From: an uncultured Ignavibacteria bacterium | Lineage (GTDB): Bacteria; Zixibacteria; MSB-5A5; WJJR01 | Length of the DNA stretch: 64,000 nucleotides | Assembly: GCA_964371625.1 (NCBI GenBank) | Contig: CAYJMP010000001.1 | Location: 1,492,601-1,556,600, forward strand | Reading direction: 5' to 3' | In this document: one piece after another, positions 28,117-57,936 of the stretch | Layout: each line of letters starts with the position of its first letter | How positions within the stretch are numbered: the first letter of the stretch is position 1 | Position numbers and translations under genes: made by a program | The notes under the pieces: generated by a model | Database searches by the model: none | What the model saw: only the letters and a program-made list of their open reading frames with translations | What the model was told of the DNA's origin: nothing

Positions 28117-31100
28117 ATGCCACGCTCGTTTAGTGTCGTAGGTCTTGTGAGGATCCTCGCGGTCCTCTGTTGCCTCTGTTTCTTGGGAATCGATCAGACC
28201 GGATCGGTCAATGTCTCGCTGGCCGAACCGGGAGACAAATCCGATTACACGGTCCCCGACGATTTGGGCGGCCGCAAGTTTCACGCCGACTCTGCATACT
28301 CGCTGACGCGGGGCGAAGGCTCGACAACGGACGGGACGCAATTCGAGGTCATCTACGGCACGGACGATCGCAAGGACATCTACAACGTCATCGATGCCCA
28401 ACAATTACAGGTCGCGCAGGCCACTTGCCTGATCGTCGATGTCAGCGAGTTGACAAACAACGGCAATGGGACGTACTCGCTGGCGACATCCGCTTGGACT
28501 ACCCAGGGCGGAACGACGATCTGCGCCGCTGAACCTTTCCGTGGACAGCTGACAGCAGGATTTTGCACTGGCTTTCTCATCGGCGACAGCTTGTTGGCCA
28601 CAGCGGGGCACTGCATCAGCAACCTTGACTGCGGCGGTACGGCGTTCGTCTTCGGATTCCAGCAGATCGATGCAACAACCCCACCGGTGACCACGATCGC
28701 GGCGGACAACATCTACTTTTGCGATGGTATCGTTACGCGCCAATACTCCGGTGACTTCGATTATTCGCTGGTGCAGCTTGATCGCGCGGTGGTCGGCCGG
28801 GAGCCCTTGCCCATTCGGAGAACCGGCGTGGTCAGCAACAGCGATCCGCTCTTTGTCGTTGGACACGGCATCACACTCCCGATGAAGGCCGCCGACAACG
28901 CGGTGGTCAAGAACGCCAACGGCGCGACCGCCTGGTTCCAGGCCAATCTCGACACCTACGGCGGCAACTCGGGGTCCCCGGTCTTCGGTGTCAATTCGGG
29001 CATGATTGAAGGGATCCTCGTCCGGGGCGCGCCGGACTTCGTCACGGTGGATGGATGCGTTAGATCCAATCAGGTCCCGGATACCGGCAACACCGGGAGC
29101 GGCCTGAAGTTCGAAGAAGTCAGCAAGACGATTACCTTTCAGTCCTTCGTGCCCGAATTGATCTCTGAGGCCGGCACGATCAAACTCAATCGACTTAAGT
29201 ACAACTGCGCCGATCTGGCCCAACTGGAAGTGCGCGATCTCGACCTTCAGGGCGCAGGGATTCTCGGTGTCACCGTCGGGACCAGCTCCGGAGACTCGGA
29301 AACATTAACACTGACGGAGACAGGACTGGCGACGGGGATTTTCCAAGGGGCGATTTCTACCAGCGACGGAGCCGTCAACCCTGGTAATGACAAAGCCGAT
29401 GTAGCCCATGAAGACAGCATCTTCGCGATCTACACCGACGCCGACGACGGCACCGGATCACCGGCCACAGACGCAGACACCGCTTCGATCGATTGCCAGG
29501 GACCGGTCATCTCCAACGTCAACACACCGGAGATTGGCGGATCGTACGCGCTCGTCGCCTTCGATACGGACGAGCAAGCGGTATCGCAAGTCGACTACGG
29601 GGTAACCTGCGGCAACCTCACGGGCACGGCGGCGGGCGGCGCGACAGCTTCGCATCTGGTCAATGTCGCGGGGTTAACACAACTCACAACCTATTACTAC
29701 ACTGTGGAAGCGAGTGACGCCGCCGGCAACACGACCATTGCCGACAACCTCGGAGCCTGCTACAGCTTCACGACCGTCGACCAACCCGATTTTTTCACGG
29801 AGATCTTCACGACCGGCGATAACGATCTTGACAATCAGTCGCTGACGTTTACACCCGATGCCTCAAGCGATTTCTACAGTGTTTGCGTCGGACCAGCCGC
29901 ATCGTTTCCGACTGACCCCAGCACGGGTACCGCCGTCACTCTGGGCGATGATGCAGATTCGTTGGTGAATTTGACCGGAGGCGCGCAGGTTCACTTGTAC
30001 GGTACCGCTTACTCCTCGCTCTACATCAGCTCAAATGGATATCTGACCTTTGTGGCGGGCGACGACGACTATGATGAATCGCTCGCGGACCATTTTGCCA
30101 TCCCTCACGTGTCAATTCTCTATGACGATCTCCATCCCGGTCAGGGATCGGCGTCAATCCGGCGCGAGCAATTTTCCGATCGCTTCGTGGTGACGTATCA
30201 GAACGTCTCAGAGTACAATGCCGGCAATCTGAATAGCTTCCAAGCCGAGCTGTATTTCGATGGCAAGATCGTGATGACTTACCTCGCCATCGCCGCCTCG
30301 GACGGCTTGGCGGGACTATCCCAAGGCGTTGGGATTCCGGTCGGCTTTACTGAGTCGGATCTCTCCGCGTATGGGGGGTGCAGCTGCCCGGACGGGGATG
30401 CCGATGGCGTGTGTGACCTTGACGACAATTGTCCTCTGACGGCTAATCCCCTGCAGGAAGATAGCGATGTCGACTCGGTGGGCGATGTGTGTGATAACTG
30501 CCCAGATACCGCAAACACGACACAGACGAACTCGGATGCGGACGGCATCGGCGATGCCTGCGACAACTGTGCTCTCGTTGCCAATAATGACCAAGTGGAC
30601 ACCGATGGCGATGGACTCGGCGATGCCTGCGACAATTGCCCGCAAATCGCCAATCCACTGCAGGAGGACCTCGACGCCGATTCGGTCGGAGACGTTTGCG
30701 ACAATTGCCCCTCCCTCCCCAACACGGCCCAAGTCAACTCTGATGCCGACTCACTCGGCGACGCTTGTGATAATTGCCCCTTGGTCTCGAACATCGACCA
30801 GACGGATGGCGATGGCGACAATGTCGGCGATTCCTGCGACGGTTGCCCATACATCCCCAATCCCGATCAAGTCGGTTGCTCGCATCACGGTGACCCGGAC
30901 ACAAACGGGGTGACGGATATTATCGATGTGGTGATGATCGTCGAGATCGCTTTCCGCTACGGCGACGCCTTGGTCGATCCGACGTGCCCGCACGCGCCCG
31001 CCGGCCGCACCGATGTAAACTGTGATGGTGTGACGGATATCATCGACGTGACCATGATGGTAAACGTCGCTTTTCGGGCAGGAACCGAGCAGTTCTGCAA

Positions 31101-31140
31101 CCCCTGCAAGTGCAATCCCTATCCGACGAATTGCCCTTAG
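28117..31140 (+). CDS. Large secreted multidomain protein: trypsin-like serine peptidase (S1) domain, beta-rich middle region, about 6 thrombospondin type-3-like calcium-binding repeats, and a C-terminal Cys-containing dockerin-like module
   Basis: Signal/TM at the N-terminus. S1 catalytic motifs are LLATAGHC (His), then Asp, then GGNSGSPVF (Ser). TSP3-like repeats: [96 protein letters not shown]... The C-terminal [25 protein letters not shown]...[25 protein letters not shown]...CNPCKC resembles paired dockerin repeats. Confidence 0.7.
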
Positions 31141-31218
31141 AAACGAGTGGATACCGAATGCAAAAGGAGCCGGTCAAATGACCGGCCCCTTGGTTCTGGA
31201 CTCGGGATTCGAGGAGGG

Positions 31219-37300: not shown

Positions 37301-38242
37301 CTACTTCGGTGGGCGAAATATCGGAATCTTGTCCGTATCGGCTTCGACATACTCGGACATCGAGTCCGATCCATCGAAGAGACGGTCGATGAGCGCCTCT
37401 TCGATATTGTTGGTGCTCTCGTCAGTCTCGGGAACAGTCATGGAATCGCTCGCCGCGGCGACACTCCCCGCCGCGTCCCGGACTTCAGCAATCGCGACGG
37501 TGATGTTGTCGTGACCACCGGCGGCATTCGCTGCTTCGATCAGGGCATCGATGGCTGACGTCGGATCGTCCGCGTGGCGCTTGACCACGGCCGCCATCTC
37601 GTCGTCGTCGATCGCGCCGCAAAGACCATCGGAGCAGAGGAGATACCAATCCCCCTGTGCCACCGGCATCACGGTGACATCTACCGAAACCACCGGCCGC
37701 GTCCCCAGCGCCCGCGTGATGATGTTGCGGTCGGGGAAAGTCCGTGCCTGCTCGGCCGTTATCTCGTTTTGCGCCAGAAGTTCGGCAACAAGCGAATGAT
37801 CGACTGTAATCGGTTCGAGTGCGCCGTTGCGGAAGAGATAGGCCCGGGAATCACCGACATGGCAGATCACGGCGCGTCCGGGAACAAACCGAGCGGCCAC
37901 GAGTGTCGTGCCCATCCCACGTGTGTGCTTTTGCGACTGTGCTGTCTGAAATACCCGACGATTCGCCAGACGTACCGCCCAGACCAAGTCTTCGGCCTCG
38001 CGAGGCAAAGACGACTCGTCGCCAGCGAGTGGAGATGGCGGACGTTCGAACTCCCCGACCCGCATCAGGTAAGCGGCGACCGTCTCGACAGCCCGCTGAG
38101 AAGCGACTTCTCCAGCGGCATGGCCCCCCATGCCGTCGCAAACAACCATGGTCTCACGCTCGGGAATGAGGCAGTAGCTGTCCTCATTGATCCGGCGGAC
38201 CCGGCCAATGTCGCTATCTCCGAATAGGGCCACAGTTGTCAT
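37301..38242 (-). CDS. PP2C-family Ser/Thr protein phosphatase
   Basis: LFGDSDIGRVRRINEDS, VVCDGMGGHAAGEVAS and LLCSDGL are conserved PP2C/Stp motifs; start at MTTVALF. Confidence 0.8.
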   Translation of the reverse strand: MTTVALFGDSDIGRVRRINEDSYCLIPERETMVVCDGMGGHAAGEVASQRAVETVAAYLMRVGEFERPPSPLAGDESSLPREAEDLVWAVRLANRRVFQTAQSQKHTRGMGTTLVAARFVPGRAVICHVGDSRAYLFRNGALEPITVDHSLVAELLAQNEITAEQARTFPDRNIITRALGTRPVVSVDVTVMPVAQGDWYLLCSDGLCGAIDDDEMAAVVKRHADDPTSAIDALIEAANAAGGHDNITVAIAEVRDAAGSVAAASDSMTVPETDESTNNIEEALIDRLFDGSDSMSEYVEADTDKIPIFRPPK

Positions 38243-38401
38243 AAGCGAAGGGGGCTTAATAATAGTCGCGGCCCGGTCCCACCTCAGGACCCGGCCGACA
38301 AACCTCCGCATAGATACTAAATCGGCATGCGGGAGGCAACCAATAGCGCCAGATGTATCCCTTTATCAATCAATGGACAACAATGCGATTGACTTGGGGA
38401 A

Positions 38402-39556
38402 TTACAGGGCGATGAGCAGAATAATTACCAGGAGAAGCAGGATTCCCACCCCGGCGACAATCCACCCCCAGCGCGGGATCTTGCCACTGGCACGTGGTTC
38501 ATCCAACGGGACAAAGGGATTCTCAGCCGCGCTGGCCTCACGGCGGCGACGGCGTACCACCGGTGGCTCTTCCGCCGCAAAATCACCCAATGCCGGGACT
38601 TCATGACGCGGCGCGGGCATCGGAGCCGCTGCCGGCTCAATCGGGCGAAGCGGAGGCTGTGGAGACGCTTGTCGAGGCTGCGGCACGGCCATGGCCGGAG
38701 CGGCTTCTCGACCCAGCTCGACTCTCAGCAACGTGCTTTCGCGTGACGAACGTATCTCGATCAGATCCTGCGCCCTCACTTCAACCCGTTGTCGCGGCGG
38801 AGCCGCATTCCCATTGACGAATGTCCCGGCCGCGCTGCCAGTATCCTCAACGTAGACGCGGTCGCCCACAACATGTACCGACGCATGCCGACGGGATACG
38901 CTGTTGTCGACATTCCCCTGTGCATCGAAGCGAATCACGATATCATTCTGACCGGATTCACGTCCGATCCGGGTCTCTCCCGATTTCAGATCCCAGTGCT
39001 GGCCCTTGAGTGGACCTGCGGTCGCAACCAGTCTCCCGACTCGCCGAACAAAGACGGTCCGTTCCATGTCCGCCGGACCAGCCGGCGCTGAGATACTCGG
39101 CGTCGTCGCAACTGCTGGCGCCGATGGTTGACTCGACTCCAATGGCGGCGGCAGATCGGGCTCAAGTGGTGGCGGCAAGGGCGGCTGACTCGCTGGGATC
39201 GCGGATTGTGCCATTGGCTGAACCGGAGCCGCAGATGCGGCCACGCCCAAGACTTCTCCAGGCAGATACTCGATTCTGACCTGATATCCTTCAATGCCGA
39301 GTATCGCCCCCTCGGGAATTTCGACTGGCCCCTCGACGGCGACGCCATTCAGGGTAAATGCCGGTATGCGCGAGATTGGCTCGACTTTATAGCGGTCGGC
39401 TGTTGAAGCGCGCACAAGGGCCGCCTGCTTAAGCGAGATCAGCAGGTCATCGATGACCACCTGCGCGGTGCGGGCAGAACCTAACTCGATGCGATCGCCA
39501 TGAGCATCGATTTGGCTCACCGGCTGGCCGTTGCGTGTGATCGAAAATCTGGGCAT
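38402..39556 (-). CDS. FHA-domain protein with Pro-rich linkers and C-terminal membrane anchor
   Basis: The second FHA-like region is TRIGRESGQNDIVI...VSRRHASVHVVGDRVYVEDTGSAAGTFVNG, with an additional N-terminal FHA-like segment. Pro-rich low-complexity linkers and a C-terminal TM WIVAGVGILLLLVIILLIAL. Confidence 0.65.
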   Translation of the reverse strand: MPRFSITRNGQPVSQIDAHGDRIELGSARTAQVVIDDLLISLKQAALVRASTADRYKVEPISRIPAFTLNGVAVEGPVEIPEGAILGIEGYQVRIEYLPGEVLGVAASAAPVQPMAQSAIPASQPPLPPPLEPDLPPPLESSQPSAPAVATTPSISAPAGPADMERTVFVRRVGRLVATAGPLKGQHWDLKSGETRIGRESGQNDIVIRFDAQGNVDNSVSRRHASVHVVGDRVYVEDTGSAAGTFVNGNAAPPRQRVEVRAQDLIEIRSSRESTLLRVELGREAAPAMAVPQPRQASPQPPLRPIEPAAAPMPAPRHEVPALGDFAAEEPPVVRRRRREASAAENPFVPLDEPRASGKIPRWGWIVAGVGILLLLVIILLIAL

Positions 39557-39589
39557 GGGGTCGATTATTCGTGAAATCCAACAGGTGTC

Positions 39590-40954
39590 TTACATCGGCT
39601 TCATCTTGAGTGTAATCTCTTTTGTCTTCCGGCCCTTCTTGACCCGTTCACCATTCGGCTTGGCGGACTCGAAACCGGTTCTCTCCGCCCACCAGTTATA
39701 ATCTCCGATCGGAACACGGGCCGTCAGGATGCCGTTCTCGTCGGTCGGCCCATAACGTACGGTGCGACCATCGTGTTTATCAACGCCAAACACTTCGGCC
39801 CCCGCCACGCGTTTTTTGCGCCCCTGTTTGACGACAAACCGCACCCAGGCCATCTCCTCGTCTTCCCCTCCCGGTTCCTCTTGACGAATCTTTGGCAGGG
39901 GACGCATCGCCACCGTGATCTCACTGGCAAATGCCGGCAAGAAGACCGTTGTGTCGGCATAGCCCGGGCAGGTCAGGAACATCTCCGAACCCCGCCCCTC
40001 TAGCAGGATATTGCGAGGCGTGGAAATGCCGTCATCCGGATTAATGACGTACTCCTGCCCTTGCCTCACCCAAGAGACACGAGCGTTGAGGTCCGAGAAG
40101 GGATTCTGCGCATCGACGGCGGCCAGCCAAACCGCCCGACTCAACACCGCGAAAATCGTCTCCCTACGGTCCTTGGCCGAGGACACCTCGATTATGGCAT
40201 CATCAAAAGGCGCCAAACGTAGCGTCAGCTTGTGATCCCCATACGGGATGGCCACGCGATCATCTGTTCGTCCGATCGGCACCGGATTGTTGTCGAGATA
40301 GATGTCCGCGCCGGCCGGAATCGAGGTGACACGAATGCGAGCGGCGAACACCCCGGTGAGTTGAGCCGGGGCTTCCGCGCTGGCCGATCGCCATTGCCAA
40401 TGCGTCGTGTCGGTTTCCTCGACAAGACCGACCAGCGGATTGAAACGCACCGGTTCCGAGGCTTCGCCCTCCAACTCGAATGAAACCTCGAGCGTATCGG
40501 TTGCCGGCACCGAGTAGCTCGCGATCTCGTAAGGACGTAAGGCACGACCATTGACGACCGGTTGGGCTCCCGAGGGGAGTGAGGTCAACTCAACTGGGAT
40601 CGAGAACACAAACTCGGGAAACACTGGTATCGGCCCATCCTCCGGCACGATCAAGAGAGTCTCCACAGGGGCCAATTCGGCGTGTTCAAGGCGGATCCTG
40701 AGTATGCCCGGATCGAAGGACTCGTATTTATACGGCGTCGAACCGACCAGAGAATTATTGATGTACACCTCGGCCCGCGAGGGGATGCTGCGGATCACAT
40801 AGGGCGATCCATCATCGACTTCCACCACATCCGCTTCCCCCTCGGCCACATGCGGTCCTGCCGGGCCGAAGTACTTAACCGCAGAGACGATAAGCAAAAT
40901 CACTGCCGCCAGGATGACCGACAACCACACAACCGATTTCGTCTGCTCGCTCAT
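39590..40954 (-). CDS. Membrane-anchored PEGA-domain protein
   Basis: N-terminal TM VVWLSVILAAVILLIVSAV. PEGA-like motifs are IRSIPSRAEVYINNSLVGSTPY and VTSIPAGADIYLDNNPVPIGRTD. Confidence 0.55.
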   Translation of the reverse strand: MSEQTKSVVWLSVILAAVILLIVSAVKYFGPAGPHVAEGEADVVEVDDGSPYVIRSIPSRAEVYINNSLVGSTPYKYESFDPGILRIRLEHAELAPVETLLIVPEDGPIPVFPEFVFSIPVELTSLPSGAQPVVNGRALRPYEIASYSVPATDTLEVSFELEGEASEPVRFNPLVGLVEETDTTHWQWRSASAEAPAQLTGVFAARIRVTSIPAGADIYLDNNPVPIGRTDDRVAIPYGDHKLTLRLAPFDDAIIEVSSAKDRRETIFAVLSRAVWLAAVDAQNPFSDLNARVSWVRQGQEYVINPDDGISTPRNILLEGRGSEMFLTCPGYADTTVFLPAFASEITVAMRPLPKIRQEEPGGEDEEMAWVRFVVKQGRKKRVAGAEVFGVDKHDGRTVRYGPTDENGILTARVPIGDYNWWAERTGFESAKPNGERVKKGRKTKEITLKMKPM

Positions 40955-46508: not shown

Positions 46509-49500
46509 TTATTTCAGCAGCGTCATCTTCTTGGTTGCCGACCATTCCGGCGTGGTCACGCGGTAGAAGTACACACCGCTCGGGACCGTGGAGCCGTTCT
46601 GGTCCTGACCGTTCCACGCTACGCGCACTGTGCCGGCCGCATCGAAGCCCTCAAAGGTCTGCACCGTCTGGCCCATGATATTGTAGACCGTCAGGGTCCA
46701 TTGAGAAGCATTCTTGATCACGAACGGCATCACCGTGCCCGCGTTGAACGGGTTCGGATAGTTCTGCAAGAGCGAGTACTCGGTCGGTACGGCGCTCGCC
46801 TCATCAACGGTCAGCGCGATCGCCTGGTTGTCGCGATCGATCCAGCGCACGTCGTTTCCGGCGGACGCTGCCACACCGTTGACCTGGAAGCTCAACTCTT
46901 CACCGTACACCGCACCCTCGATCTCTGATGTCTGCGGCACATCGCCATAGACGTGGACCAGGAACGCGCCATTGGCGCCCACGGTGCCTTCACCGATCAA
47001 GGTGCCGGACGAGTTGCGGACCGAGATCGTCGAGCCCGCATTCAGATTCGACGAGTTCGCGTAGTAGTCGGCGACCATCGGCGTGGCCGTCACACGGCCC
47101 GACGTCGAATTCGCCACCAGCTTCGCCGTGCCTGCGAGACAGCCCTCGGCCTCGGCCGGATAGATCAGCGTATCTTCCGACTTCATCTTGATCCAGTAAC
47201 CGTGGCACGACTCCATACAGACCAGGTCGTTGTTCTGTGGTTCGCGCAGTTCGTTCCACGACGCCACACCATAACCGCAGATCAGGGTAAAGATGTGCGC
47301 GTAGTTGCCGTCCAGCGACTCGAGCGCATGCCCGAGGTTGTCCATCTCCATCGGGAGGTATGGAATGTAGTTCCAGCCCTCACAGAGGTAGATCGGCGTC
47401 GACGGGTCGATAACTTCACCCTCGATGCAGATTGTGTCTTCCTGCAACATATGGATGTCGTAGCCGAACCACGGCGACACGTCAACCAGGTCGTTGATCG
47501 GACGGTTCGCGAACCAGGAGATTGAACCGTAATCGCACAGTCCCGAACGAACCGCGTCATAGTTCAAGTCAATGGTCGCCAACACCGCTTCCCGCGCGTA
47601 ATCGGGGAGTTGTATGTTGTATGACCACATGTTCCAGCCTTCGCACAGAGTGCAGCAGAGTCCGGTCGGACGGCAATCCCACGCCGCGTCGAACCGGTAG
47701 CTGGCGAAGTTGAGCCAGGTATCCGGAGCCACCACCGGGCATTCGCAATTCAGCCACAGCGTGATCGAGTCGCCCGGCAGCGCGCCTTCGTCTTCCGGCG
47801 TCTTGATGTCATCGCCGAGAACGTGGATCAGATACGTGCCGGCGCTATCAAGCTCGACATAGGTGATGCCGCAAATCACGCCATCCGGATCGGTCGCGTA
47901 GATGACATCGCCCGGCTGGATCGGGAAGCCTTCAGAGGTCGCATCCGAAGAATAGTAGTCGGTGAAGTACGGCCAGTTCGGCAGCGGCACGAAGTTGATC
48001 GGGTCAAGATGGATGATCAACTCGCCGTCCTCGCATGACCACGGACCAACGACGTCGGTGCAGTACCCCTTCTTCCACGCGCGGATTTCATACTTCTCGC
48101 CGGGGGTCACGGCGAAGCAGAACTTGCCCCAGTCCGTCGTGGTGGAGGTGATCAGCACGCCATCCGGATACGACGTCCACAGTTCAACCGTCGCGTCGTC
48201 AAGTCCGCAGAGGCTCTTTTGTTCGAAGCAGTCGCTGTTGTACACCCAGCCGCAGATCGAATCGCATTCGACTGTGTCGCGCGGGCAGATACGCAACTCG
48301 ACTCTCACCCACTGCTGGGCATCGATCGCGCACAGCTTGTTGCCGGTGACACAGATCGAGTCGATGATCGTATCGCAGACTTCCGGACACTTGATCGAAT
48401 CCGGGTTCAAGCTGACATAGAACGTGTCGTCCGCGGTGCCGTCGCTCGGCTCAACATTGAACCAGTTGGCATCCCACGTGGCCACCCATTCCAGCACGCC
48501 GCCGTCGGCATTGCTGACGTACACGGGCAGCGGATTGGCCTTCTGATCGCAGAAGATCTCGAAGAGCAGATTCTTCGGCTCAACAACCATGATCGGCTGG
48601 GCCTCGACGACGAGCTTGACCACCAGTTGATCGCAACCGGAGATCACATCGGCGCCCTTTTCGCACGGACAGAACGTTACAGTCTGATAGTATGTGCCGA
48701 CCGCCAGCGTGCACGGATCGACGCAGATTTCGATCTCGCCCGGTGTCGTGCCGGAGGTCGGATCGACCCAAACCCAACCGGTCTCGCCAACCAGCGACCA
48801 GCACGTCTCCTCGCAACCCAGCTTGGCGATATTGACCGGCAAGCAGAGCTTGTCGTTCCAGATGTCGCCGGTGTAGGTGAAGGACAGCGTGTCAGTATCG
48901 AGGACCACACCCGGCGTGTCCTGGTTGGTCTCGAAGATCACGTAGAACGAATCCGAGATCGCGCCCGGGGCGTTGTGCAAGTACACCCAGCCCTCGACGG
49001 TGGCCGCGACGCCCGTGGCGCACGCGATCACATCGACCAAGGCCGGTCCGTTGCCCGGATTCGGCGAAACGCTGATGCCCGGAACCGCGGTCTCGGCCTG
49101 GTAGAAGCACTCCTCACCCTTATTCGGGGAGATACAGAAGATATCGACCTGCTGCGTGTCGCAGCCACAGGTCACCTTGAACGTCAACGTGTCGGTCTCA
49201 TCCGTCACGTGCGGTCCCGGAACCTCTTGCGACGGCGGCAACACTGTGATCGTGAAGCAGCATGAATCGAAGTTCTGCGCCGCATCATACGCGCGACAGC
49301 AGACCGTGTAGGGACCGCCGACCAGGAAGAAAGCCCCGGACGACGAGTCACAATCGTATGTGACGCCCGGGCAGTTGTCTGTGGCACCCGTCGTCCAGTT
49401 CACCACGGCGCCAGTCTGACCAAACGCGGCGTTAATCGTGATGTTGTCAGAGCACGTAATGACCGGAACTTCGGTGTCTTCAACTGTAACGTTGAAGAAG

Positions 49501-52445
49501 CACGTGTCCTTATTCCCCGCGTTGTCAGCCACGATGTGCCTGACCTGCGTGGTTCCGACCGGGAAGAACGATCCGGCCGGTGGGGAATAGACGCTGCTTG
49601 CGACTTCACAATTGTCCGTGGAGCCAACACCGTTGGCCAAGAAGTCAAAGATCGCGCCGCATTGGGCGGGATCGTTGGGTATTGTAAAGTCATCCGGGCA
49701 GAAGGCGACAGGATGTTCCGTATCGCTGACTGTCACCGTCGTCCAGCACGTATCCGAGGCATTGCCGGCATTGTCATAGGCCACGACCGACATGTCCCAG
49801 ATGCCGACAGGAATGTCGTAGCACTCGACGCCCTTGGTCGAGAAGACCGCTTTGACCGGCGTGTAGATCACCACGGTGATCAAATTCAAACCGCAGTTAT
49901 CGTCTCCGCCAACCACGGGGTTAATATCTTCAACGCAGATCTGACCACTGCAGAAACCGGGATCGTTATCGACATTGATCGGGCCGCACGTCACCGTCGG
50001 CGGCGTGTTGTCGACCACCGTCACGAAAGCCGAGCAGGTATCTTCGTCGCCTTCGTCATCGGTCACGGTCAGGAGAACGAGAGTCGATCCCAAGCTGTAC
50101 GGTCCGGGCGGGGCCTGAGACGTTGTCACCGAACCGCCGTCCGGATCATTCGAACCATTGTTGATGTCGGCGTTCGCTTCGCAGTTGGTATCGGCGTCGA
50201 CGATACGGTCGGTGCAGAGTGCCACTGGCGGAACCTTCACATCCGGCAGCTCTTCAACGGTGACGCTGAAGTGGCAGGTATCGGCGTTGCCGCAGTTGTC
50301 TGTGGCAATCACTTCGATATCATAGTTGCCCGGAACCGTGAACGACGTACCCAACGGCGGATTGTAGCTGATGTCCACCGACGGATCGCAATTGTCGCTG
50401 GCCGAAGCCGCACTGTAGGAGACGTTGACCGACGGCGTACCAAACGGCACCTGCACGAGCGTGTCGTTCGGACAGGTCACGACCGGCGCGATCGCGTCGC
50501 GAATCGCAAACACCTGTTCGCAGCCTTGCTCATTACCGGCGGCATCGGATAGGATATAGAAGTATTTGAAATACCCGGTGCATTCATCAGCAGTCGGCTG
50601 TTGTCCGCTCCAGTTCAGGTTGAACGGCCCGGGGCAGTTGTCGGTGATCGTCCCGCCCGCCGTGAGGAAGGCCGCGACGTCCGCAAGGTGCGCCGGAACG
50701 TCGTCGAAACACGCCACCGTCACCGTATCCGGGCAGACAACCACCGGAGCGGTGTTATCCTCGACGGTGACCGTCGCATCGCAGGTATCGGCCAAACCAC
50801 CCTGGTCGGTGACGATCAACTTCACCGGGTTCGCACCAAGAGCGTACGGTCCGGCGGGTTCGAGAGCCAGGATCAGGTTGGTGCCGTCCTCGTTGTCATT
50901 CGAGCCGTTGTTGACCTGGGCCGCAGTCGCGCTGCCCTGGCAATTGCCGTCAGCGTCCACAACGACATTCTGGCAAACCGCGGTCGGCGGCGTGTTCCCC
51001 GGCGGATCTTCAATGATTGTCACATTGAAGAAGCAGGTGTCGGCGTTGCCGCACAGGTCGCTTGCGATCAGACGAACCTGCGTCGTTCCCACATTGAATG
51101 TGGAGTTCGACAACGGCGAATGAATGATGTTGACGTTATTGCAATTGTCCGTGATGTCAGCGTCCGAATAAAGCACAGCTGTGCTCGTCGTCCCGTTCGG
51201 AAGATGGATTGTCGTGTCGTTGGGACAGGCCGTGATCACCGGCGCTTCCGTGTCATCCACCGTGATCAATTGCGCGCAGGTGTCCGCGTTGCCGGCGTCA
51301 TCGGTAAGCACATAAAGGCGCGTGATGACCTCCGGGCAGGACTGCCCATCACTGGTCTGACCCGCGTACGAGAACGTCCAACCCGCACCCGCGCAGTTGT
51401 CGGCGAAGGTTCCGCCAGCGGTGAGGAAAGCCGCCGCGTCGGCATAGGCCGCCGGAATATTGGCCGAACACTGCACCGCGATGTCGCCCGGGCAGGTGAT
51501 GGCCGGGTCCGTATCATCGACAACCGTGATCGTCGCACTGCACGAATCAACATCGCCGTCATCGTCGGTGACAACCAACCAAACAGGATTGGCGCCCAAT
51601 GCATACGGCGGGCCGGGATGCAGGACCATGCTTTGGATCGTGCCATCTGAATCTGTCGAGCCATTATCCACCAAATCGGCGGTCGCGTCCCCTTGGCAAA
51701 GGCCGTTGGCCGCCACTTGGATATTTTGGCAAACGGCATTCGGCGGAACATTCGGAACCTGCACGCACGAACCGGTTCCGACTGTGATGAAGCCGGGAGT
51801 GAAGTCCGGCTGAACTGCCGAGGTAAATTCATCAACGAAGGTTAAATGACTTGCAGGCTTGGTGCACATCGTGTCGATGATGATGCAGCCGTTTGTCGCC
51901 TTGAGGTTGAAGCGGATCAGAAGGGATGCATTTGGTGTGCCCGCTCCGTCCGCACCCGGGGCGAGGAAAATGTCCTCGCCGATATCAGGATCGCCCGTGC
52001 TGACGGATGCGAACAACATGGCATCTGGGCTGTGCCCGTCAAATTGAGCGCCTGCCGCACCCCAGCCATAGTCACCACCGCCGGTGCAGTTTGCACCTGC
52101 GGCCTCCGGCACCGCATATTTGCGGGTGGTTACACTCGCAGCCGGCCCATTGGGGTTTGCGTTGCCAAGCGCGCTGTTGTTCATCCGATTCGCGTTGACA
52201 AGCCCCCAAAACGATGTCGTCGATGTCCCGGAGTCGATCTCGGCGCCGCCGTTGAAGGATCGGATCTCCAGTGGGACGACGATGCCCTGAATGTTTATGT
52301 CATTGGTGATGAAGACACCAACGCTACAGGGTGCCGCGTCGGCCGCGTAAGTCCGCGACTCGACCACGACGGAGTTAACCGCATTCGCGGTTGCCGCCCA
52401 CAAACAGAGAAGCAGACAACACGCGATGAGTGCTACCTTTTTCAT
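46509..52445 (-). CDS. Giant (about 1980 aa) cell-surface protein with repeated HYR-like domains and a T9SS C-terminal sorting domain
   Basis: Start at MKKVALIACCLLLCLWAATANA, preceded by AAAGGAGAG. Repeated HYR-type endings are DLCGNADTCFFNVTIIE, DNCGNADTCHFSVTVEE, DNAGNKDTCFFNVTVED and DNAGNASDTCWTTVTVSD. The C-terminal LLQNYPNPFNAGTVMPF...YFYRVTTPEWSATKKMTLLK is a T9SS CTD. The many antisense ORFs within it are judged spurious. Confidence 0.8.
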   Translation of the reverse strand: MKKVALIACCLLLCLWAATANAVNSVVVESRTYAADAAPCSVGVFITNDINIQGIVVPLEIRSFNGGAEIDSGTSTTSFWGLVNANRMNNSALGNANPNGPAASVTTRKYAVPEAAGANCTGGGDYGWGAAGAQFDGHSPDAMLFASVSTGDPDIGEDIFLAPGADGAGTPNASLLIRFNLKATNGCIIIDTMCTKPASHLTFVDEFTSAVQPDFTPGFITVGTGSCVQVPNVPPNAVCQNIQVAANGLCQGDATADLVDNGSTDSDGTIQSMVLHPGPPYALGANPVWLVVTDDDGDVDSCSATITVVDDTDPAITCPGDIAVQCSANIPAAYADAAAFLTAGGTFADNCAGAGWTFSYAGQTSDGQSCPEVITRLYVLTDDAGNADTCAQLITVDDTEAPVITACPNDTTIHLPNGTTSTAVLYSDADITDNCNNVNIIHSPLSNSTFNVGTTQVRLIASDLCGNADTCFFNVTIIEDPPGNTPPTAVCQNVVVDADGNCQGSATAAQVNNGSNDNEDGTNLILALEPAGPYALGANPVKLIVTDQGGLADTCDATVTVEDNTAPVVVCPDTVTVACFDDVPAHLADVAAFLTAGGTITDNCPGPFNLNWSGQQPTADECTGYFKYFYILSDAAGNEQGCEQVFAIRDAIAPVVTCPNDTLVQVPFGTPSVNVSYSAASASDNCDPSVDISYNPPLGTSFTVPGNYDIEVIATDNCGNADTCHFSVTVEELPDVKVPPVALCTDRIVDADTNCEANADINNGSNDPDGGSVTTSQAPPGPYSLGSTLVLLTVTDDEGDEDTCSAFVTVVDNTPPTVTCGPINVDNDPGFCSGQICVEDINPVVGGDDNCGLNLITVVIYTPVKAVFSTKGVECYDIPVGIWDMSVVAYDNAGNASDTCWTTVTVSDTEHPVAFCPDDFTIPNDPAQCGAIFDFLANGVGSTDNCEVASSVYSPPAGSFFPVGTTQVRHIVADNAGNKDTCFFNVTVEDTEVPVITCSDNITINAAFGQTGAVVNWTTGATDNCPGVTYDCDSSSGAFFLVGGPYTVCCRAYDAAQNFDSCCFTITVLPPSQEVPGPHVTDETDTLTFKVTCGCDTQQVDIFCISPNKGEECFYQAETAVPGISVSPNPGNGPALVDVIACATGVAATVEGWVYLHNAPGAISDSFYVIFETNQDTPGVVLDTDTLSFTYTGDIWNDKLCLPVNIAKLGCEETCWSLVGETGWVWVDPTSGTTPGEIEICVDPCTLAVGTYYQTVTFCPCEKGADVISGCDQLVVKLVVEAQPIMVVEPKNLLFEIFCDQKANPLPVYVSNADGGVLEWVATWDANWFNVEPSDGTADDTFYVSLNPDSIKCPEVCDTIIDSICVTGNKLCAIDAQQWVRVELRICPRDTVECDSICGWVYNSDCFEQKSLCGLDDATVELWTSYPDGVLITSTTTDWGKFCFAVTPGEKYEIRAWKKGYCTDVVGPWSCEDGELIIHLDPINFVPLPNWPYFTDYYSSDATSEGFPIQPGDVIYATDPDGVICGITYVELDSAGTYLIHVLGDDIKTPEDEGALPGDSITLWLNCECPVVAPDTWLNFASYRFDAAWDCRPTGLCCTLCEGWNMWSYNIQLPDYAREAVLATIDLNYDAVRSGLCDYGSISWFANRPINDLVDVSPWFGYDIHMLQEDTICIEGEVIDPSTPIYLCEGWNYIPYLPMEMDNLGHALESLDGNYAHIFTLICGYGVASWNELREPQNNDLVCMESCHGYWIKMKSEDTLIYPAEAEGCLAGTAKLVANSTSGRVTATPMVADYYANSSNLNAGSTISVRNSSGTLIGEGTVGANGAFLVHVYGDVPQTSEIEGAVYGEELSFQVNGVAASAGNDVRWIDRDNQAIALTVDEASAVPTEYSLLQNYPNPFNAGTVMPFVIKNASQWTLTVYNIMGQTVQTFEGFDAAGTVRVAWNGQDQNGSTVPSGVYFYRVTTPEWSATKKMTLLK

Positions 52446-53638: not shown

Positions 53639-54100
53639 TTGCGATCGATGCGACGCATGGCTGACTTATCGATTTCGCATCGGCATCTGCCGCACTGGTC
53701 GTTGAACGGCGCCTGGTATTATGTGACTTTCTGCTTGGGATCCGGAACACTTACGGACCAAGAGCAGCAATTGGTCCTGGGACACATCAAGAGCGGACAT
53801 CCGAAGTTCTATCGATTGACCGCTCTTTGTGTGATGCCGGACCACGTGCATGTCATTCTGTCACCCAATAACGGCCGCAAGATCTCCGACATCATGAAAG
53901 GCATCAAGGGCGTCTCTTCGAGGGATATCAATCGACTTCGAGGGGTGCGCGGGGCGCTATGGCAGGGCGAGTCCTGGGACCGAATCTTGAGGGACGAAGG
54001 AGAATTCCAGGAGAAACTCAAGTACATGTTGATGAACCCCGTTGAAGAGGGACTGACCGATGATCCTTGGACATATCGAGGTTGGTTCCTCCAATCATGA
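53639..54100 (+). mobile_element. REP-associated tyrosine transposase (RAYT, IS200/IS605 TnpA-like HUH Y1 transposase)
   Basis: The HUH motif is MPDHVHVILSP. The catalytic Tyr region is KLKYMLMNPVEEGL. 153 aa. Flanked on both sides by the REP units. Confidence 0.75.
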
Positions 54101-54513: not shown

Positions 54514-57500
54514 CTACGGTTTCCACTTCACGCACGGATCGACGAACGAGTTGTTCGCGGTGATCGCCACGTTACGGAACGCCACGCCGACCATCTTCGT
54601 CACGTCGAGAACGTCGATTGCGCCACTGGCGTCGACGTCACGGCTGTCGAAGTTGCAACCGGCCTGGGCAGGCTTGTCGCTCGCCGTGCCCGAAGGATCG
54701 ATCGCAGGATCAACGATCACGTTACGGAAGGCGCCGCCGACGACGTGAGTCACGTCGAGCACGGTCGCGCTGCCATCGCAAGCGGGATCATAACGGCACG
54801 GACAAATCGCGCAGCCGCTGAACGCGCCACCATTCACCAACGCCGCCGCCGCATCGACCTTCGCCTTGAAGGCAACATCATCGAGCGTGTCGGAAACGAG
54901 GATGGCATAGTGGCTTCTCACGGTCGTCGTGCGATACGTTCCGGCAACAGTCTGGAAGGTCTGGCCGTTGTCGAATCCGACCATCACGTACAGATCGGTA
55001 TCCGCGACTTCGCCAACTTCGACGCCGGAAACGGTTTGCAACAACTGGTACAGGTGGCCGTCAGAAGGACCGCCCGCGGTCTGGTTGTCGATGTTGTTTC
55101 CAACATACGCGCCGTTAAAGTCGGAGGCCGACGGTACGGCGATACCGGCGCGGAAACGCTCGGCGGTATTCTGAGGAGTCGGAGTGGTTCCGACCCGGTT
55201 CACGCCACGAACGTACGCGAGGTTGCGTGTCGCGTCGCCCAAGCCGTGGTTCGTCGCGCCGCTCTGCATGGTGTCGATCGGGTTGCGCTGGGCCGGGATC
55301 ATATCCAAGTCAGCCAGCATACCCGTGGTGACGCCGCTCACCGGCAACGTCGCCTCCGGGCCCGGGAAGACCAGATAGTTGACGATGACAACTTCGTCAG
55401 CACTGATATCCTGCGGGAAGTACCAGCTCACGTTGACGCCCATGATCGAGTCGCGGGTGCTCATGTACGCACCGGCTGTGGCGTACGGCTGAGCGCCGAC
55501 GTACCCGAGCGTGTCAACCCACAGCGAACTCTGCGAACGGAAGCCATTCTGGCCGTTCGAGAGACGGTCAAAGAAGCGGAGGAACACGGTGGTGTCTGTT
55601 GGTCCCTGCGTTCCATGCGCCATCAGAAGCGACGCATCAAAGAAGCTCGACGATGAGTCGGAATTACGCCACAGACCGCCCTCGTCTTCTTGTGATCCAA
55701 ATCGACCGCTGCTCTGAACGTCCAGCGCGAGCGAACCCGGGCTCGCCACACCGGTCTTGAGAATCTCCGCTTGCGGACAGAAGAAGATGTCGAAAACGAA
55801 GAATTCAACCGGATAGACGCGCGGGCTGGGGTTTTCGGTCGTGGCCGCGTTGTGCGAAATCGAGATCTGGCCCATGTAGAGACCTTCGGCCGCGTTGTTC
55901 GACGCCATGTTGACCGTCATGTCAATGTCCGGATCGCCGGCGGGAATCGAATAGGCGCCCAGGGCATGACCCGTAATCGACAGAGTCGGAAGTCCGGTGA
56001 AATCCGTCAAAGCAATACCAGCGCCGCCACCCTGATTCAACGTGGCATTACCCAGGTTGAGGATCGACAGCGGAGCCGTCGTTGCTCCCGCGCGCGGGGC
56101 ATTGTATTCGCACAACGGATCGGTGCCCAACGTGGCTTCGAACACCGGAGCGATCAACGGGCACACGCCCGCCGGAGCGATGCCGGAGCCCGAAAGCTGC
56201 AGGTAGTGCACCGGGTTCAACTGCCAGGAGCCTTCACCCTGCGGAATGCCACCAGCATCCATGTCGCTGACGAAGAACAGATCGATGTCTTTCACCACAC
56301 GGCCGATCGTCGACCAGTGCTCGGAACGGCAAACGCTGTCCGGATTGGCCGGCAGACCGGTACCGATGTCGGCGAGACCCGGCTGGCAGCCTGGGGTCTT
56401 GGTGTTGGTCAGGTTGACCGGCGGTGACCAGGTGTTGCCACCCGTGTTCGAAATGGCCAGGTAGATTTCGCCATTCATGTAGCCGCCGTTGCGGCCTTCG
56501 AACGAATACTCGGAAGAGTAATCAGCCAACTGGGCCGGCGTGTTGCCGCCAAACTGCGTGTACGTCACATACACGTAGTTGTTGTTCGAGCCGCCGCCGC
56601 ACGTCGTCGAACCATCGCCAATACCCATCGTGAGCTTGGTCAGGTTCAAGTTGAACACGCCGGTCGAGACCGGGCGGTCCCAGTAGCCGAGGGCCACGGT
56701 GCGGATCGTCGGAACGTTGTTGCTCCAGTGCTTAATCGCGATGTGCTCGCTGTTGGCGTTTTCCTGCTCGTCCCACATGATGTGCAGGTTGCCGGAATTG
56801 TCATAGGTCGTGGTCAGATGCACCCACGAGGTAAACATGTCCGGCAGGCCATAGTTGGTCACCATCGTCGGGGTCGGAACCGGATCGACGTTTGGCACAA
56901 GCGCCAACCAGTCGGTGCCGTTCGTGAGCGACTCGATGTAACCGACGTTGCTGTAGCCACCCTCGGTCTCATGGGTGACGATGGCCACTTTATTGCTGGT
57001 GGCATCGGCGCCCAGCACATAGCTGATGTCCCCGGTCGTACCAACAAACGCCGGGCCCGACCACACGCTGACACCGTCAAAACGCCAGTACCACAACTTG
57101 TGGGTCGGGCAGTCGTTGGTGTTCGTGTGGGCGATTTCGTGAAGAATGGCGTTGGAACGGTCGGCAGTCAGACGCGGCCAGAGAACGCCGCCGGTGCCGC
57201 CGCCGGTGCCGGCGCAGCTATTGTCCTGACCGGTGAGACCATAAATCTGGTAAGTGTCATCACCGAACGGGAGTTGCGCGTGCCACGGCTCGTAGGGCTC
57301 GAGAGTGTAGTCGTTCTCGGCCTGGTGCAGGGCAATCTGCGCGTGATTGAGATTGTCCACGTCGATGCCGCAATAGCCGCCGCGGTTCGTCGCGCCGGTG
57401 ATTTCGATACCGTTGTAGCCGGTGCCGATGGTCATCGACGGATACGCGCCCGGATCGTCGTATCCCGAATACAGCACATACCGGTCAGAGTTTTCCCCTG

Positions 57501-57936
57501 TCGACGGGATGTACTTAAACGACATCCAGGTGAAGTGAAGACGCGAACCAGCCGGTGTGCGGGCAACGTTGTAACCCTGCGAATCGTTGGCCTGATAGTC
57601 GTAGCTGGTGAAGCCGATGTCCTGCCCCGGCGACGGCGGGGGCGGAACAGCGCCGACCGCAGCGAATGCCTCGCGCGACGGCATGCTCTCGTTGATAATC
57701 GAGCTGTTGAAATCGTGACTCACCGGGCCGCGGCCGGCATCCATGATGCGAGTCTGCAACCACTGGCGGTTCACTTCGTTCCGGTACTGCTCGGTCTGCC
57801 GATGTCGGTCGACCCGACGCTGAATTTTGCGCTTGGCGATGGCATCGGGGGTGTTGGCCGCGTTGACCACCACGGTGCTTGCTGCCGCCGCGACGACCAA
57901 GAGGGCCACCCCAATTTTCACAATCTTCCCCGTCAT
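54514..57936 (-). CDS. Large (1140 aa) secreted protein of unknown function with C-terminal Cys-containing dockerin-like module
   Basis: Signal/anchor MTGKIVKIGVALLVVAAAASTVVVNAA. A long Gly/Thr/Asn-rich beta-type body. C-terminus: CAICPCRYDPACDGSATVLDVTHVVGGAFRNVIVDP...SRDVDASGAIDVLDVTKMVGVAFRNVAITANNSFVDPCVKWKP, the same module as in the 28117 and 41271 proteins. Confidence 0.6.
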   Translation of the reverse strand: MTGKIVKIGVALLVVAAAASTVVVNAANTPDAIAKRKIQRRVDRHRQTEQYRNEVNRQWLQTRIMDAGRGPVSHDFNSSIINESMPSREAFAAVGAVPPPPSPGQDIGFTSYDYQANDSQGYNVARTPAGSRLHFTWMSFKYIPSTGENSDRYVLYSGYDDPGAYPSMTIGTGYNGIEITGATNRGGYCGIDVDNLNHAQIALHQAENDYTLEPYEPWHAQLPFGDDTYQIYGLTGQDNSCAGTGGGTGGVLWPRLTADRSNAILHEIAHTNTNDCPTHKLWYWRFDGVSVWSGPAFVGTTGDISYVLGADATSNKVAIVTHETEGGYSNVGYIESLTNGTDWLALVPNVDPVPTPTMVTNYGLPDMFTSWVHLTTTYDNSGNLHIMWDEQENANSEHIAIKHWSNNVPTIRTVALGYWDRPVSTGVFNLNLTKLTMGIGDGSTTCGGGSNNNYVYVTYTQFGGNTPAQLADYSSEYSFEGRNGGYMNGEIYLAISNTGGNTWSPPVNLTNTKTPGCQPGLADIGTGLPANPDSVCRSEHWSTIGRVVKDIDLFFVSDMDAGGIPQGEGSWQLNPVHYLQLSGSGIAPAGVCPLIAPVFEATLGTDPLCEYNAPRAGATTAPLSILNLGNATLNQGGGAGIALTDFTGLPTLSITGHALGAYSIPAGDPDIDMTVNMASNNAAEGLYMGQISISHNAATTENPSPRVYPVEFFVFDIFFCPQAEILKTGVASPGSLALDVQSSGRFGSQEDEGGLWRNSDSSSSFFDASLLMAHGTQGPTDTTVFLRFFDRLSNGQNGFRSQSSLWVDTLGYVGAQPYATAGAYMSTRDSIMGVNVSWYFPQDISADEVVIVNYLVFPGPEATLPVSGVTTGMLADLDMIPAQRNPIDTMQSGATNHGLGDATRNLAYVRGVNRVGTTPTPQNTAERFRAGIAVPSASDFNGAYVGNNIDNQTAGGPSDGHLYQLLQTVSGVEVGEVADTDLYVMVGFDNGQTFQTVAGTYRTTTVRSHYAILVSDTLDDVAFKAKVDAAAALVNGGAFSGCAICPCRYDPACDGSATVLDVTHVVGGAFRNVIVDPAIDPSGTASDKPAQAGCNFDSRDVDASGAIDVLDVTKMVGVAFRNVAITANNSFVDPCVKWKP

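Follow-up and report, generated by a model that had tools for sequence, protein, structure and literature searches.

Our analysis of a 64-kb stretch of DNA (the whole of which is hereafter called the window), probably from a member of the Zixibacteria, revealed three large secreted proteins that end in a common module, which is a divergent, cysteine-stapled member of the dockerin superfamily. Since a neighbouring giant protein with a T9SS CTD starts with a domain, termed X below, that looks cohesin-like, we favour with moderate confidence the reading that the dockerin tails and X constitute a non-cellulosomal cohesin-dockerin display system on T9SS anchors, with X as the presumed binding partner of the tails. 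The features concerned are as follows:

28117..31140, + strand: gene 1, secreted trypsin-like serine protease with a C-terminal Cys-dockerin (ORF and translation)
Gene 1, aa 150-291: Trypsin_2 (Pfam 7.5e-14)
Gene 1, aa 755-919: TSP type 3 repeats (Pfam TSP_3 1.2e-19)
30874..31137, + strand: module D1 of gene 1, aa 920-1007 (family HMM E 1.6e-31)
41271..42992, + strand: gene 2, secreted protein with Big_9/cadherin-like repeats and a C-terminal Cys-dockerin (Pfam, NCBIfam)
42744..42989, + strand: module D2 of gene 2, aa 492-573 (family HMM E 5e-37)
45056..46396, - strand: neighbouring T9SS cargo protein, 446 aa, CTD at 45059..45343 (TIGR04183 33.7 bits, cutoff 23, 2.7e-8)
46509..52445, - strand: giant surface protein, 1978 aa, with signal peptide, domain X, HYR repeats, other beta-rich domains and T9SS type A CTD
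46512..46787, - strand: T9SS type A CTD of the giant protein (TIGR04183; Pfam Por_Secre_tail, CHU_C, FlgD_ig)
51777..52379, - strand: domain X, predicted to be cohesin-like, giant protein aa 23-223, about 200 aa (AF2 and Foldseek)
54514..57936, - strand: gene 3, 1140-aa secreted protein with a C-terminal Cys-dockerin (ORF and translation)
54517..54816, - strand: module D3 of gene 3, aa 1041-1140 (family HMM E 2.9e-24)

The tail module and its dockerin affinity

An earlier note had proposed that three large secreted proteins share a tail module: their ORFs are indeed present, and the regular expression D[VIL][VIL]D[VIL]...[AG]F[RK], run over the six frames of the 64 kb, matches only in genes 1-3. 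The E-values of the family HMM on the three tails place this sharing far beyond chance. The module measures 82-100 aa in these proteins, rather than the previously estimated 75 or so, and comprises two D-x-[DN]-C-x-G-x-T-D-V-I-D-V-V-x-x-V-N-V-A-F-R segments along with eight conserved cysteines. Other details of its initial description apply in part. Of the two motif copies expected per tail, five are strict, but the sixth, which is the first repeat of gene 3 (DGSATVLDVTHVVGGAFR), is degenerate. The prefix C-P-C-x-x-D-P-A-C-D-G is found in proteins 2 and 3, but protein 1 has a different 12-residue stretch. All eight family cysteines are present in D2; however, D1 lacks two of them (Cys9 and Cys15) and has an extra 10-residue C-terminal extension, while D3 lacks a different two (Cys52 and Cys79; pattern CCCCC..C) and has a long linker.

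The description of the cargo as a protease and adhesin-like repeat proteins stands: gene 1 combines its trypsin-like domain with the TSP type 3 repeats, and the gene 2 product matches Big_9 (1.5e-24) and Cadherin_4 (4e-21) in Pfam and the tandem-95 repeat in NCBIfam. The true start of gene 2 is likely the Met at 41316, followed by the signal peptide MRSAVVTLIAGFVTQGSLA. A Pfam search with the gene 3 product returned no family. The middle region of the gene 1 product is beta-rich, and a hydrophobic signal-like segment can be read at its N-terminus.

In a profile-profile comparison using hhalign, the module aligned with Dockerin_1-type domains from the FCB group across 56 columns spanning both repeats with a probability of 97.6% (E 3.9e-12); four domains of the target alignment were scanned, and their Dockerin_1 scores of 28.8-41.4 bits exceed the Pfam gathering cutoff. 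In the suggested comparison with the Pfam dockerin model itself, D1 scores 15.3 bits (E 0.023), below the cutoff of 22.9, and D2 and D3 have no Dockerin_1 match. The module reaches neither the Pfam nor the NCBIfam thresholds, and Dockerin_1 does not occur among the 25 of 31 families listed at E<=1e-3 for 78 full-length members. A profile search of the PDB with the module lists dockerins at marginal E-values of 0.3-4. The AF2 model of the module (pLDDT 78) displays two loop-helix units, with helices at 27-38 and 67-78 following the loops. When this model was compared with the PDB using Foldseek, all 24 of the 24 matches were dockerins, most with a target-normalised TM of 0.66-0.78 and an rmsd of 2.3-3.0 A, the weak E-values (0.04-8) being a consequence of the tiny size of the domain.

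Column statistics of the family show that the eight cysteines are conserved at 94-100%. Their positions disappear in pairs, with 9 co-lost with 15 and 52 with 79 (7 of the 8-10 losses in each case; Fisher p ~1e-10 and ~1e-9), which suggests that they form disulfide staples, up to four in number. One His is 74% conserved and a C-x-P-C motif lies 0-2 residues from the end. Loop 2 (D49-V-[ND]-C-[DSTN]-G-x-T-[DNT]-V-x-D60) is fully canonical, while loop 1 (D12-P-x-C-D-G-x-x-[DN]-V-x-D23) is variable at position 3, where there is no conserved Ca ligand. The N-V-A-F-R helix face is >90% conserved in both repeats. The module displays the duplicated F-hand arrangement, namely a 12-residue EF-hand-like loop followed by a helix, twice over, and its two loops point to probable Ca2+ binding. 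Profile-profile homology, exclusively dockerin fold matches and pairwise cysteine loss together bear out the idea of a paired dockerin repeat with disulfide-capable cysteines. Being of a known kind, the module is less exotic than the second dedicated sorting tag that it had been thought to be.

Genome- and metagenome-wide recurrence, on which the earlier note had staked its proposal beforehand, was recovered: the family has 2026 cluster representatives (clusters at 50% identity) at E<=1e-3 and 780 at E<=1e-10, with further dockerin-bearing loci in the same genome. The module ends <=2 residues from the C-terminus in 148/170 proteins; several proteins (P0024, P0026, P0028, P0204) also have it immediately behind the signal peptide or at internal positions. 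In the 78 full-length members, the main cargo domains are FG-GAP, TSP_3, beta-propeller, beta-helix, M28/M6/M64 peptidase and cadherin/PKD; among the aforementioned 25 of 31 families there is no glycoside hydrolase family.

The giant T9SS protein and domain X

Both neighbours previously assigned T9SS CTDs carry one of type A, the products of 45056..46396 and 46509..52445 scoring 33.7 and 41.7 bits (8.5e-11 for the latter) against the TIGR04183 cutoff of 23. The former shows no match to the X or dockerin-module profiles. The latter, which contains HYR repeats (Pfam 1.2e-46) and was recovered as an exact match on the 3.33-Mb contig that also carries genes 1 and 3, is a candidate anchoring 'scaffoldin'. 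The search for a cohesin-like partner turned up X, as a candidate, in this very protein. The AF2 model of X (pLDDT 80, pTM 0.81), built from a 16-sequence alignment and including about 60 residues of low-confidence insertions, retrieved cohesins from the PDB as all of its top 17 Foldseek matches (E 6.8e-7 to 4.7e-4, probability 1.0), and the predicted structure has the cohesin beta-sandwich fold. At the sequence level, the giant protein does not match Pfam Cohesin at E<=1, the 16 X domains match no Pfam family at E<=5, and the X profile finds nothing among PDB sequences at E<=10. As there is no sequence similarity to Pfam Cohesin or PDB chains, the cohesin assignment of X rests on one AF2 model.

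X is closely linked to the dockerin module in both domain architectures and gene neighbourhoods. Of 61 X homologues, 53 have the organization signal peptide-X-dockerin and four signal peptide-X-T9SS CTD; the same domain is, in other words, furnished with either tail. The X-dockerin fusions, about 50 in number and also picked up by a local profile search, are small proteins, and this commonest X architecture has essentially zero linker. There are also proteins in which dockerin (D) and X alternate in the order D-X-D-X-D-X-D. In the window, the gene for the giant protein lies between genes 2 and 3. A separate 20-kb locus of the same genome encodes four dockerin-module proteins and two X...T9SS-CTD proteins, and the 3.33-Mb contig as a whole encodes at least eight dockerin-module proteins and four X proteins, three of these four with a T9SS CTD. 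Two other Zixibacteria assemblies (L017 and L018) share a conserved order of adhesin-dockerin, S8 protease-Cys-dockerin and X-T9SS CTD. In sum, X and dockerin-tagged genes lie side by side at four loci in three genomes, and X co-occurs with dockerin proteins and a surface anchor in the same genome, as cohesins do. The dockerin modules show no clear split into specificity types. The presence of a cohesin-like domain in the window, its fusion to the module elsewhere and its synteny in other genomes favour a cohesin-dockerin-like surface assembly, one of the two options raised by the earlier note. However, the tag can no longer be regarded as independent of T9SS, because T9SS-CTD proteins, the giant neighbour among them, bear its candidate receptor.

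Comparison with known systems

Like type I dockerins (PF00404), the module has two tandem loop-helix (F-hand) segments and is usually C-terminal on secreted proteins, its second loop fits the canonical D-x-[ND]-x-[DSTN]-G-x-x-[DN]-x-x-D, and its near-identical repeat helices recall the internal symmetry on which dual binding modes depend. The window tails differ in falling below the Pfam cutoff, in their eight conserved cysteines (predicted to form four disulfides), in the N-V-A-F-R end of the helices and in the absence of a conserved position-3 ligand in loop 1; furthermore, proteases and adhesin-like proteins take the place of CAZymes as cargo and the host is a diderm of the FCB group. The Ruminococcus flavefaciens ScaA dockerin (PMC3821032) has a stabilizing intramolecular clasp, in which the two termini of the dockerin likewise touch; that clasp is non-covalent, whereas the one here would be covalent, joining Cys5/Cys7 with Cys43/Cys82.

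Structural alignment matches the predicted beta-sandwich of X to cohesins (PF00963) of type I, of type II and of the non-cellulosomal kind (Archaeoglobus fulgidus, PDB 2xdh), and, as in anchoring and adaptor scaffoldins, X is paired with either a surface anchor or a dockerin. It differs from cohesins in having no detectable sequence similarity, a length of about 200 aa against about 145, long insertions and conserved cysteines (C-S-G-P, D-T-C-C), and in usually occurring as a single N-terminal copy, not in long tandem arrays. With X mostly single-copy, the system also departs from the cellulosomal assembly of CAZymes on a multi-cohesin scaffoldin.

A parallel exists in the cellulosome-like system, with a T9SS-CTD scaffoldin bearing cohesins and with dockerin-tagged peptidases, that Williams et al. 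(2021, PMC8542988) inferred for 'Ca. Stygibacter' of the Cloacimonadota. Like ours, that model was built in silico for an FCB-group diderm; in both, signal-peptide enzymes, including peptidases, have C-terminal dockerins, and a T9SS CTD attaches a protein with cohesins or cohesin-like domains to the cell. In Ca. Stygibacter, however, the cohesins and dockerins are standard ones detected by InterProScan and the scaffoldin comprises tandem cohesins and CBMs. In the present case Pfam misses both domains, the dockerin is a Cys-stapled one, X forms single N-terminal tips and X-dockerin mini-proteins dominate. What looks new is the cohesin-like start of the window's T9SS giant, for which Cloacimonadota offers an in silico precedent.

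The proposed display system and its alternatives

In the display system that we propose, the Cys-dockerin would use a pair of EF-hand-like Ca2+ loops, with a D-V-V-x-x-V-N-V-A-F-R helix behind each loop, and would be rigidified by up to four disulfides, which would form after Sec export and include a covalent 'clasp' from the N- to the C-terminus. It would act as a non-covalent docking tag on proteases and FG-GAP/cadherin/beta-propeller adhesin-like proteins, allowing them to bind the X beta-sandwich. X, in turn, would be the N-terminal, cell-distal tip of proteins that are secreted and fixed to the outer membrane through a C-terminal T9SS CTD, the 46509..52445 giant being one such anchor. The small X-dockerin proteins may be adaptors or chain extenders, comparable to adaptor scaffoldins in cellulosomes. 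Several points count against docking: if X bound a dockerin of the same type, X-dockerin proteins would polymerise or self-occupy; we know of no route by which dockerin-tagged proteins would cross the outer membrane to reach the surface; and extracellular disulfides are awkward for a probable anaerobe. It is conceivable, if quite unlikely, that the pair is more than a static display system. Since T9SS exports folded proteins, dockerin proteins, whose sole export signal is for Sec, might bind X of CTD-bearing carriers in the periplasm and exit piggy-back through T9SS. Instead or as well, the abundant signal peptide-X-dockerin mini-proteins and the alternating D-X-D-X-D-X-D proteins might join head-to-tail, building on the surface a disulfide-hardened lattice or fibre into which enzymes and adhesins would plug.

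A less probable reading than docking, which we nonetheless take seriously, is that the module is a Ca2+-binding or stabilising appendage of dockerin fold with no dedicated protein receptor. Its target might then be LPS, a glycan or a mineral surface, or it might simply aid folding; X would be a frequent beta-sandwich neighbour whose cohesin-like fold and co-location are incidental. Many non-cellulosomal dockerin-like modules are indeed without a known cohesin partner (Peer et al. 2009, as relayed in PMC8542988), and both the lack of sequence similarity of X to cohesins and the zero-linker fusion, unusual for a receptor-ligand pair, are in keeping with this. Yet, it leaves aside that both halves of one known interacting pair co-occur, fused and syntenic across the above-noted four loci, and that the N-V-A-F-R conservation in both repeats exceeds the usual demands of fold stability.

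The other option of the earlier note, an unrecognised sorting or secretion signal that serves a separate export or attachment pathway parallel to the T9SS CTD, with a machinery of its own to read and perhaps remove it, we deem improbable. Like the type A CTD (TIGR04183/PF18962), the module is a C-terminal tag on diverse secreted cargo in the same genome, and its range of cargo is similar to that of T9SS; it is strictly C-terminal in about 90% of members, X bears either tail, and the terminal C-x-P-C is conserved. This option is disfavoured because the module is also placed internally and right after the signal peptide. Moreover, its helical F-hand fold is unrelated to the Ig-like beta-sandwich of the CTD, and the three tails have no NCBIfam match at E<=10, sorting domains included, and no Por_Secre_tail match. 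As read from the sequences, they end in C-x-P-C plus 0-10 polar residues without the hydrophobic helix of PEP-CTERM/sortase-type signals, and no candidate sorting-machinery genes were seen adjoining any of the module loci. Least credible, and highly improbable in our view, is that the cysteines (C-x-C-x-C-H ... C-x-P-C) make up a metal cluster or Zn site in a metal-dependent or redox-sensing domain distinct from a classical dockerin. Eight cysteines and the conserved His within about 80 residues would suit such a site, as would a probably anaerobic host rich in multihaem cytochromes, where extracellular disulfides are less favoured; but the loss of cysteines in discrete pairs with the other six kept fits independent disulfides and not a site with 3-4 ligands, and Cys-less relatives (L017/L018) retain the V-A-F-R dockerin framework.

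The cohesin-dockerin pair is the classic high-affinity 'plug and socket' of Gram-positive cellulosomes. Two families missed by current domain libraries look like such a pair in a diderm phylum that is uncultured: the Cys-stapled dockerin, for which clustering at 50% identity leaves at least 780 representatives, and a cohesin-like domain without a Pfam match. The system is wired to a T9SS anchor, and its load consists of proteases and adhesin-like proteins instead of cellulases. If the interaction is real, it would provide two new domain models for annotation, and its disulfide-stabilised pairs would be parts for protein engineering. It would also explain the surface retention of a large class of 'hypothetical' secreted proteins of Zixibacteria and would broaden T9SS biology beyond the covalent attachment of cargo, to a modular layer in which display is indirect.

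The shared C-terminal module and its cargo

A six-frame regular-expression search over the 64-kb window confined the repeat core of the Cys-rich C-terminal module to the open reading frames of three genes, here called genes 1 to 3, whose products all have signal-peptide-like starts. These genes, their modules and the adjacent type IX secretion (T9SS) proteins are as follows:

28117..31140 (+): gene 1, 1007 aa, trypsin-like protease with TSP type 3 repeats (Pfam)
41271..42992 (+): gene 2, 573 aa, probable start 41316, Big_9/cadherin-like repeats (Pfam)
54514..57936 (-): gene 3, 1140 aa, no Pfam match
30874..31137 (+): C-terminal module of gene 1
42744..42989 (+): C-terminal module of gene 2
54517..54816 (-): C-terminal module of gene 3
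45056..46396 (-): protein with a T9SS type A C-terminal domain (CTD), TIGR04183 above cutoff, next to the dockerin genes
46509..52445 (-): giant protein with a T9SS type A CTD, TIGR04183 above cutoff, next to the dockerin genes

The family HMM recovers the three tails with E-values of 5e-37, 1.6e-31 and 2.9e-24. The earlier note's account of three large secreted proteins with a common C-terminal module, of a protease and adhesin-like repeat proteins as its carriers, and of two neighbors with T9SS CTDs is thereby borne out. Recurrence beyond the window, which the note had proposed to examine with an HMM of the three C-termini, was likewise observed: a first search with the three-tail profile brought up 23 proteins, some of them named Candidatus Zixiibacteriota, and a widened 20-sequence profile retrieved 2026 proteins at E<=1e-3 from 1.84 billion cluster representatives (780 of them at E<=1e-10, 18 at E<=1e-30). 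The taxonomic assignment to Zixibacteria follows the names of the nearest homologues. A search for related loci with narrow patterns from the three tails, in a collection without the window's own genome, yielded 12 loci. The module ends at most two residues from the C-terminus in 148 of the 170 proteins examined and has the consensus C-x-C-x-C-H-x-D-P-x-C-D-G-V-x-x-V-L-D-V-V-x-x-V-N-V-A-F-R-G ... D-P-x-C-P ... T-D-V-x-C-x-G-x-T-D-V-x-D-V-V-K-x-V-N-V-A-F-R-G ... E-F-C-x-P-C-x.

A Pfam census of 78 full-length members revealed FG-GAP and TSP_3 domains, SBBP beta-propellers, beta-helices and peptidases of the M28, M6 and M64 families, along with Big_9, cadherin, PKD, plastocyanin-like and further extracytoplasmic domains; among the 25 families listed of 31 there is no glycoside hydrolase family. 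The module is a generic tag for secreted proteins and not the mark of a cellulosome. One recurrent secreted family of roughly 180-215 aa (homologues P0002, P0003, P0005, P0007 and P0015, and 12226..12870 of L015, a related locus in the window's own genome) couples the Cys-rich module directly to a small conserved domain with the signature ..Y-x-I-D-W-x-S-x-N-G-G-G..G-Q-S-x-A-G-E..G-I-G-F-W-Y-G, which Pfam does not recognise; the window's genome has at least two copies of the family. At L015, Peptidase_S74 proteins (endosialidase chaperone/intramolecular chaperone; 10704..12215 and 19537..20546) occur among the dockerin and cohesin-like genes.

Affinity of the module to dockerins

Comparison of the tails with known models, as the earlier note had suggested, gave a divided answer. 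The Pfam Dockerin_1 model was matched below threshold by one isolated tail only (best score 15.3 bits, cutoff 22.9), and NCBIfam gave no match to the isolated tails at E<=10. No model for T9SS CTD (including Por_Secre_tail), PEP-CTERM-like, choice-of-anchor or named NCBIfam dockerin-anchor families matched either the whole proteins or the isolated tails of genes 1 to 3 in Pfam and NCBIfam, so the tail is assigned to none of these. Weaker, Cys-less relatives from Gemmatimonadota, Neomarinimicrobiota and an unclassified bin do pass the Dockerin_1 gathering score (28.8-41.4 bits), and hhalign aligned the module profile with these across both repeats with 97.6% probability and an E-value of 3.9e-12. 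A profile search of the PDB listed dockerins with marginal E-values. Structure prediction, also proposed in the note, returned two loop-helix units (AF2; pLDDT 78, pTM 0.73), and all 24 Foldseek PDB matches of this model are dockerins, most with a target-normalised TM of 0.66-0.78. By column statistics loop 2 conforms to the canonical EF-hand-like pattern of dockerins; in loop 1, no ligand is conserved at position 3. The tail is thus very probably a dockerin homologue. The giant TIG/cadherin/Big_9 adhesins of two other Zixibacteria loci, L017 (1718..7132) and L018 (1535..7000), have a C-terminal dockerin that lacks the cysteines but keeps the V-A-F-R helix signature; it seems to stand midway between the ordinary dockerins of the FCB group and the Cys-rich subtype.

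We also considered, and rejected, the idea that the tail is one more TSP type 3 repeat. The best TSP_3 stretch of gene 1 (828-872) lies upstream of the module, the isolated tails have no TSP_3 match at E<=10, and any TSP_3 is present in only 12 of the 78 members. Such Ca-binding repeats often abut the C-x-C-x-C start of the dockerin (window 30379..30873 (+), P0004, P0014, P0209), which suggests either a preferred linker or kinship between the two Cys/Asp-rich Ca motifs.

Eight cysteines of the module (profile positions 5, 7, 9, 15, 43, 52, 79 and 82) are 94-100% conserved. Cys 9 and 15 are jointly absent in seven modules, including that of gene 1 (Fisher p about 9e-11), and Cys 52 and 79 in seven, including that of gene 3 (p about 1e-9), with counts and p-values taken per sequence and not per independent evolutionary event. 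Independent disulfides predict such pairwise loss with the other six cysteines kept, and the pattern speaks against one metal site with several ligands. Judging from these loss patterns, the cysteines probably form disulfides, with 9-15 and 52-79 as pairs, and Cys 5, 7, 43 and 82 would link the N-terminus, linker and C-terminus of the module. These predicted ties would be a covalent counterpart of the dockerin "clasp", which is non-covalent.

The cohesin-like domain X

When all larger open reading frames of the window were scanned with Pfam, neither a cohesin nor another partner emerged. In the multi-module homologues P0024 and P0028, the module alternates with a domain of roughly 190 aa, here called X, which is also found in the window, as confirmed by a local iterative search:

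51777..52379 (-): domain X of the giant T9SS protein, aa 23-223, right behind the signal peptide

None of 16 members of X matched Pfam at E<=5, and no PDB sequence was matched. The AF2 model of X (pLDDT 80, pTM 0.81) has cohesins as all of its 17 best Foldseek PDB matches (E 6.8e-7 to 4.7e-4, probability 1.0), spanning type I, type II, the non-cellulosomal Archaeoglobus form and one from Clostridium perfringens. X is a candidate receptor of the dockerin module, a role that we regard as somewhat probable.

The two domains are frequently fused. Among 61 X homologues, 53 are proteins of roughly 300 aa with the architecture signal peptide-X-dockerin and four are signal peptide-X-T9SS CTD, the remainder being truncated or running on into long proteins like the window's giant. 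P0024 (963 aa) shows, with D for the dockerin module, the architecture signal peptide-D-X-D-X-D-X-D, and in P0204 D lies ahead of X. The module therefore also works N-terminally and internally. Of the two functions offered by the earlier note, a cohesin-dockerin-like surface assembly or an unrecognised sorting signal, these positions speak against the latter in the form of a cleaved C-terminal signal. Alternating proteins from metagenomes also include P0026, P0027, P0028 and P0052; we know of no described scaffoldin with such an architecture, and these proteins could self-assemble. The dockerins of X-D proteins and those of cargo proteins show only partial nearest-neighbor assortativity (42/66), and no diagnostic column separates the two groups.

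Gene neighborhoods also link the two domains. The X-bearing giant gene is flanked by genes 2 and 3, and one contig of 3,330,464 bp carries genes 1 and 3, the giant protein, P0002 and P0203. The 20-kb locus L015 combines four dockerin-tagged genes with two proteins of roughly 980 aa that have an N-terminal X and a C-terminal Por_Secre_tail. In L017 (GCA_036397555.1) and L018 (SRR25822377) the gene order is kept: the giant adhesin with the Cys-less V-A-F-R dockerin, a Peptidase_S8-PKD protein with the Cys-rich dockerin, and signal peptide-X-T9SS CTD. Taken together, these counts imply that the window's genome encodes at least eight dockerin-tagged and at least four X proteins, both being lower bounds.

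Other elements of the window include an IS200-like Y1 transposase frame (53639..54100 (+)) between the giant gene and gene 3, a tmRNA gene just past gene 3 (58541..58898 (+); tag peptide AYDNSYALAA), and a run of PP2C phosphatase, FHA-domain and PEGA-domain genes just upstream of gene 2 (37301..40999 (-)) that may serve Ser/Thr signalling. Large multihaem cytochromes are clustered at 646..10807 (-): two have fused cytochrome b561-like membrane domains, one is NapC/NirT-like and two have MtrC/MtrF-like domains. Together with a weak candidate for an MtrB/PioB-like porin (9470..10807), this cluster resembles a conduit for extracellular electron transfer. Public assemblies (ENA ERZ136929xx series) contain the identical gene 1 protein in 46 blocks, many on contigs >1 Mb; the host has therefore been repeatedly and deeply assembled, and it may be accessible as an enrichment.

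Known systems and a possible surface assembly

Dockerin-like and cohesin-like modules exist outside cellulosomes, according to Peer et al. (2009) as cited in PMC8542988. In the Cloacimonadota 'Ca. Stygibacter', a cohesin scaffoldin anchored by a T9SS CTD and dockerin-tagged peptidases and glycosidases were inferred in silico (PMC8542988). In contrast to that and other known systems, here both domains are missed by current models, the dockerin is predicted to carry Cys staples, an enlarged cohesin-like domain typically forms a single N-terminal tip, X-dockerin mini-proteins predominate, and the 25 of 31 cargo families listed include no glycoside hydrolase. Literature searches for Zixibacteria with dockerins or cellulosomes, and for Gram-negative dockerins that are Cys-rich or contain disulfides, returned nothing relevant.

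We propose that the proteins would be exported by Sec, upon which the dockerin would fold round Ca2+ and be stapled by its disulfides. X would be exposed at the N-terminal tip, facing away from the cell, of proteins secreted and fixed to the outer membrane by T9SS via the CTD. The dockerin-tagged proteases and adhesin-like proteins, having presumably crossed the outer membrane, would bind X, and the X-dockerin mini-proteins may serve as adaptors or extenders of this surface assembly.
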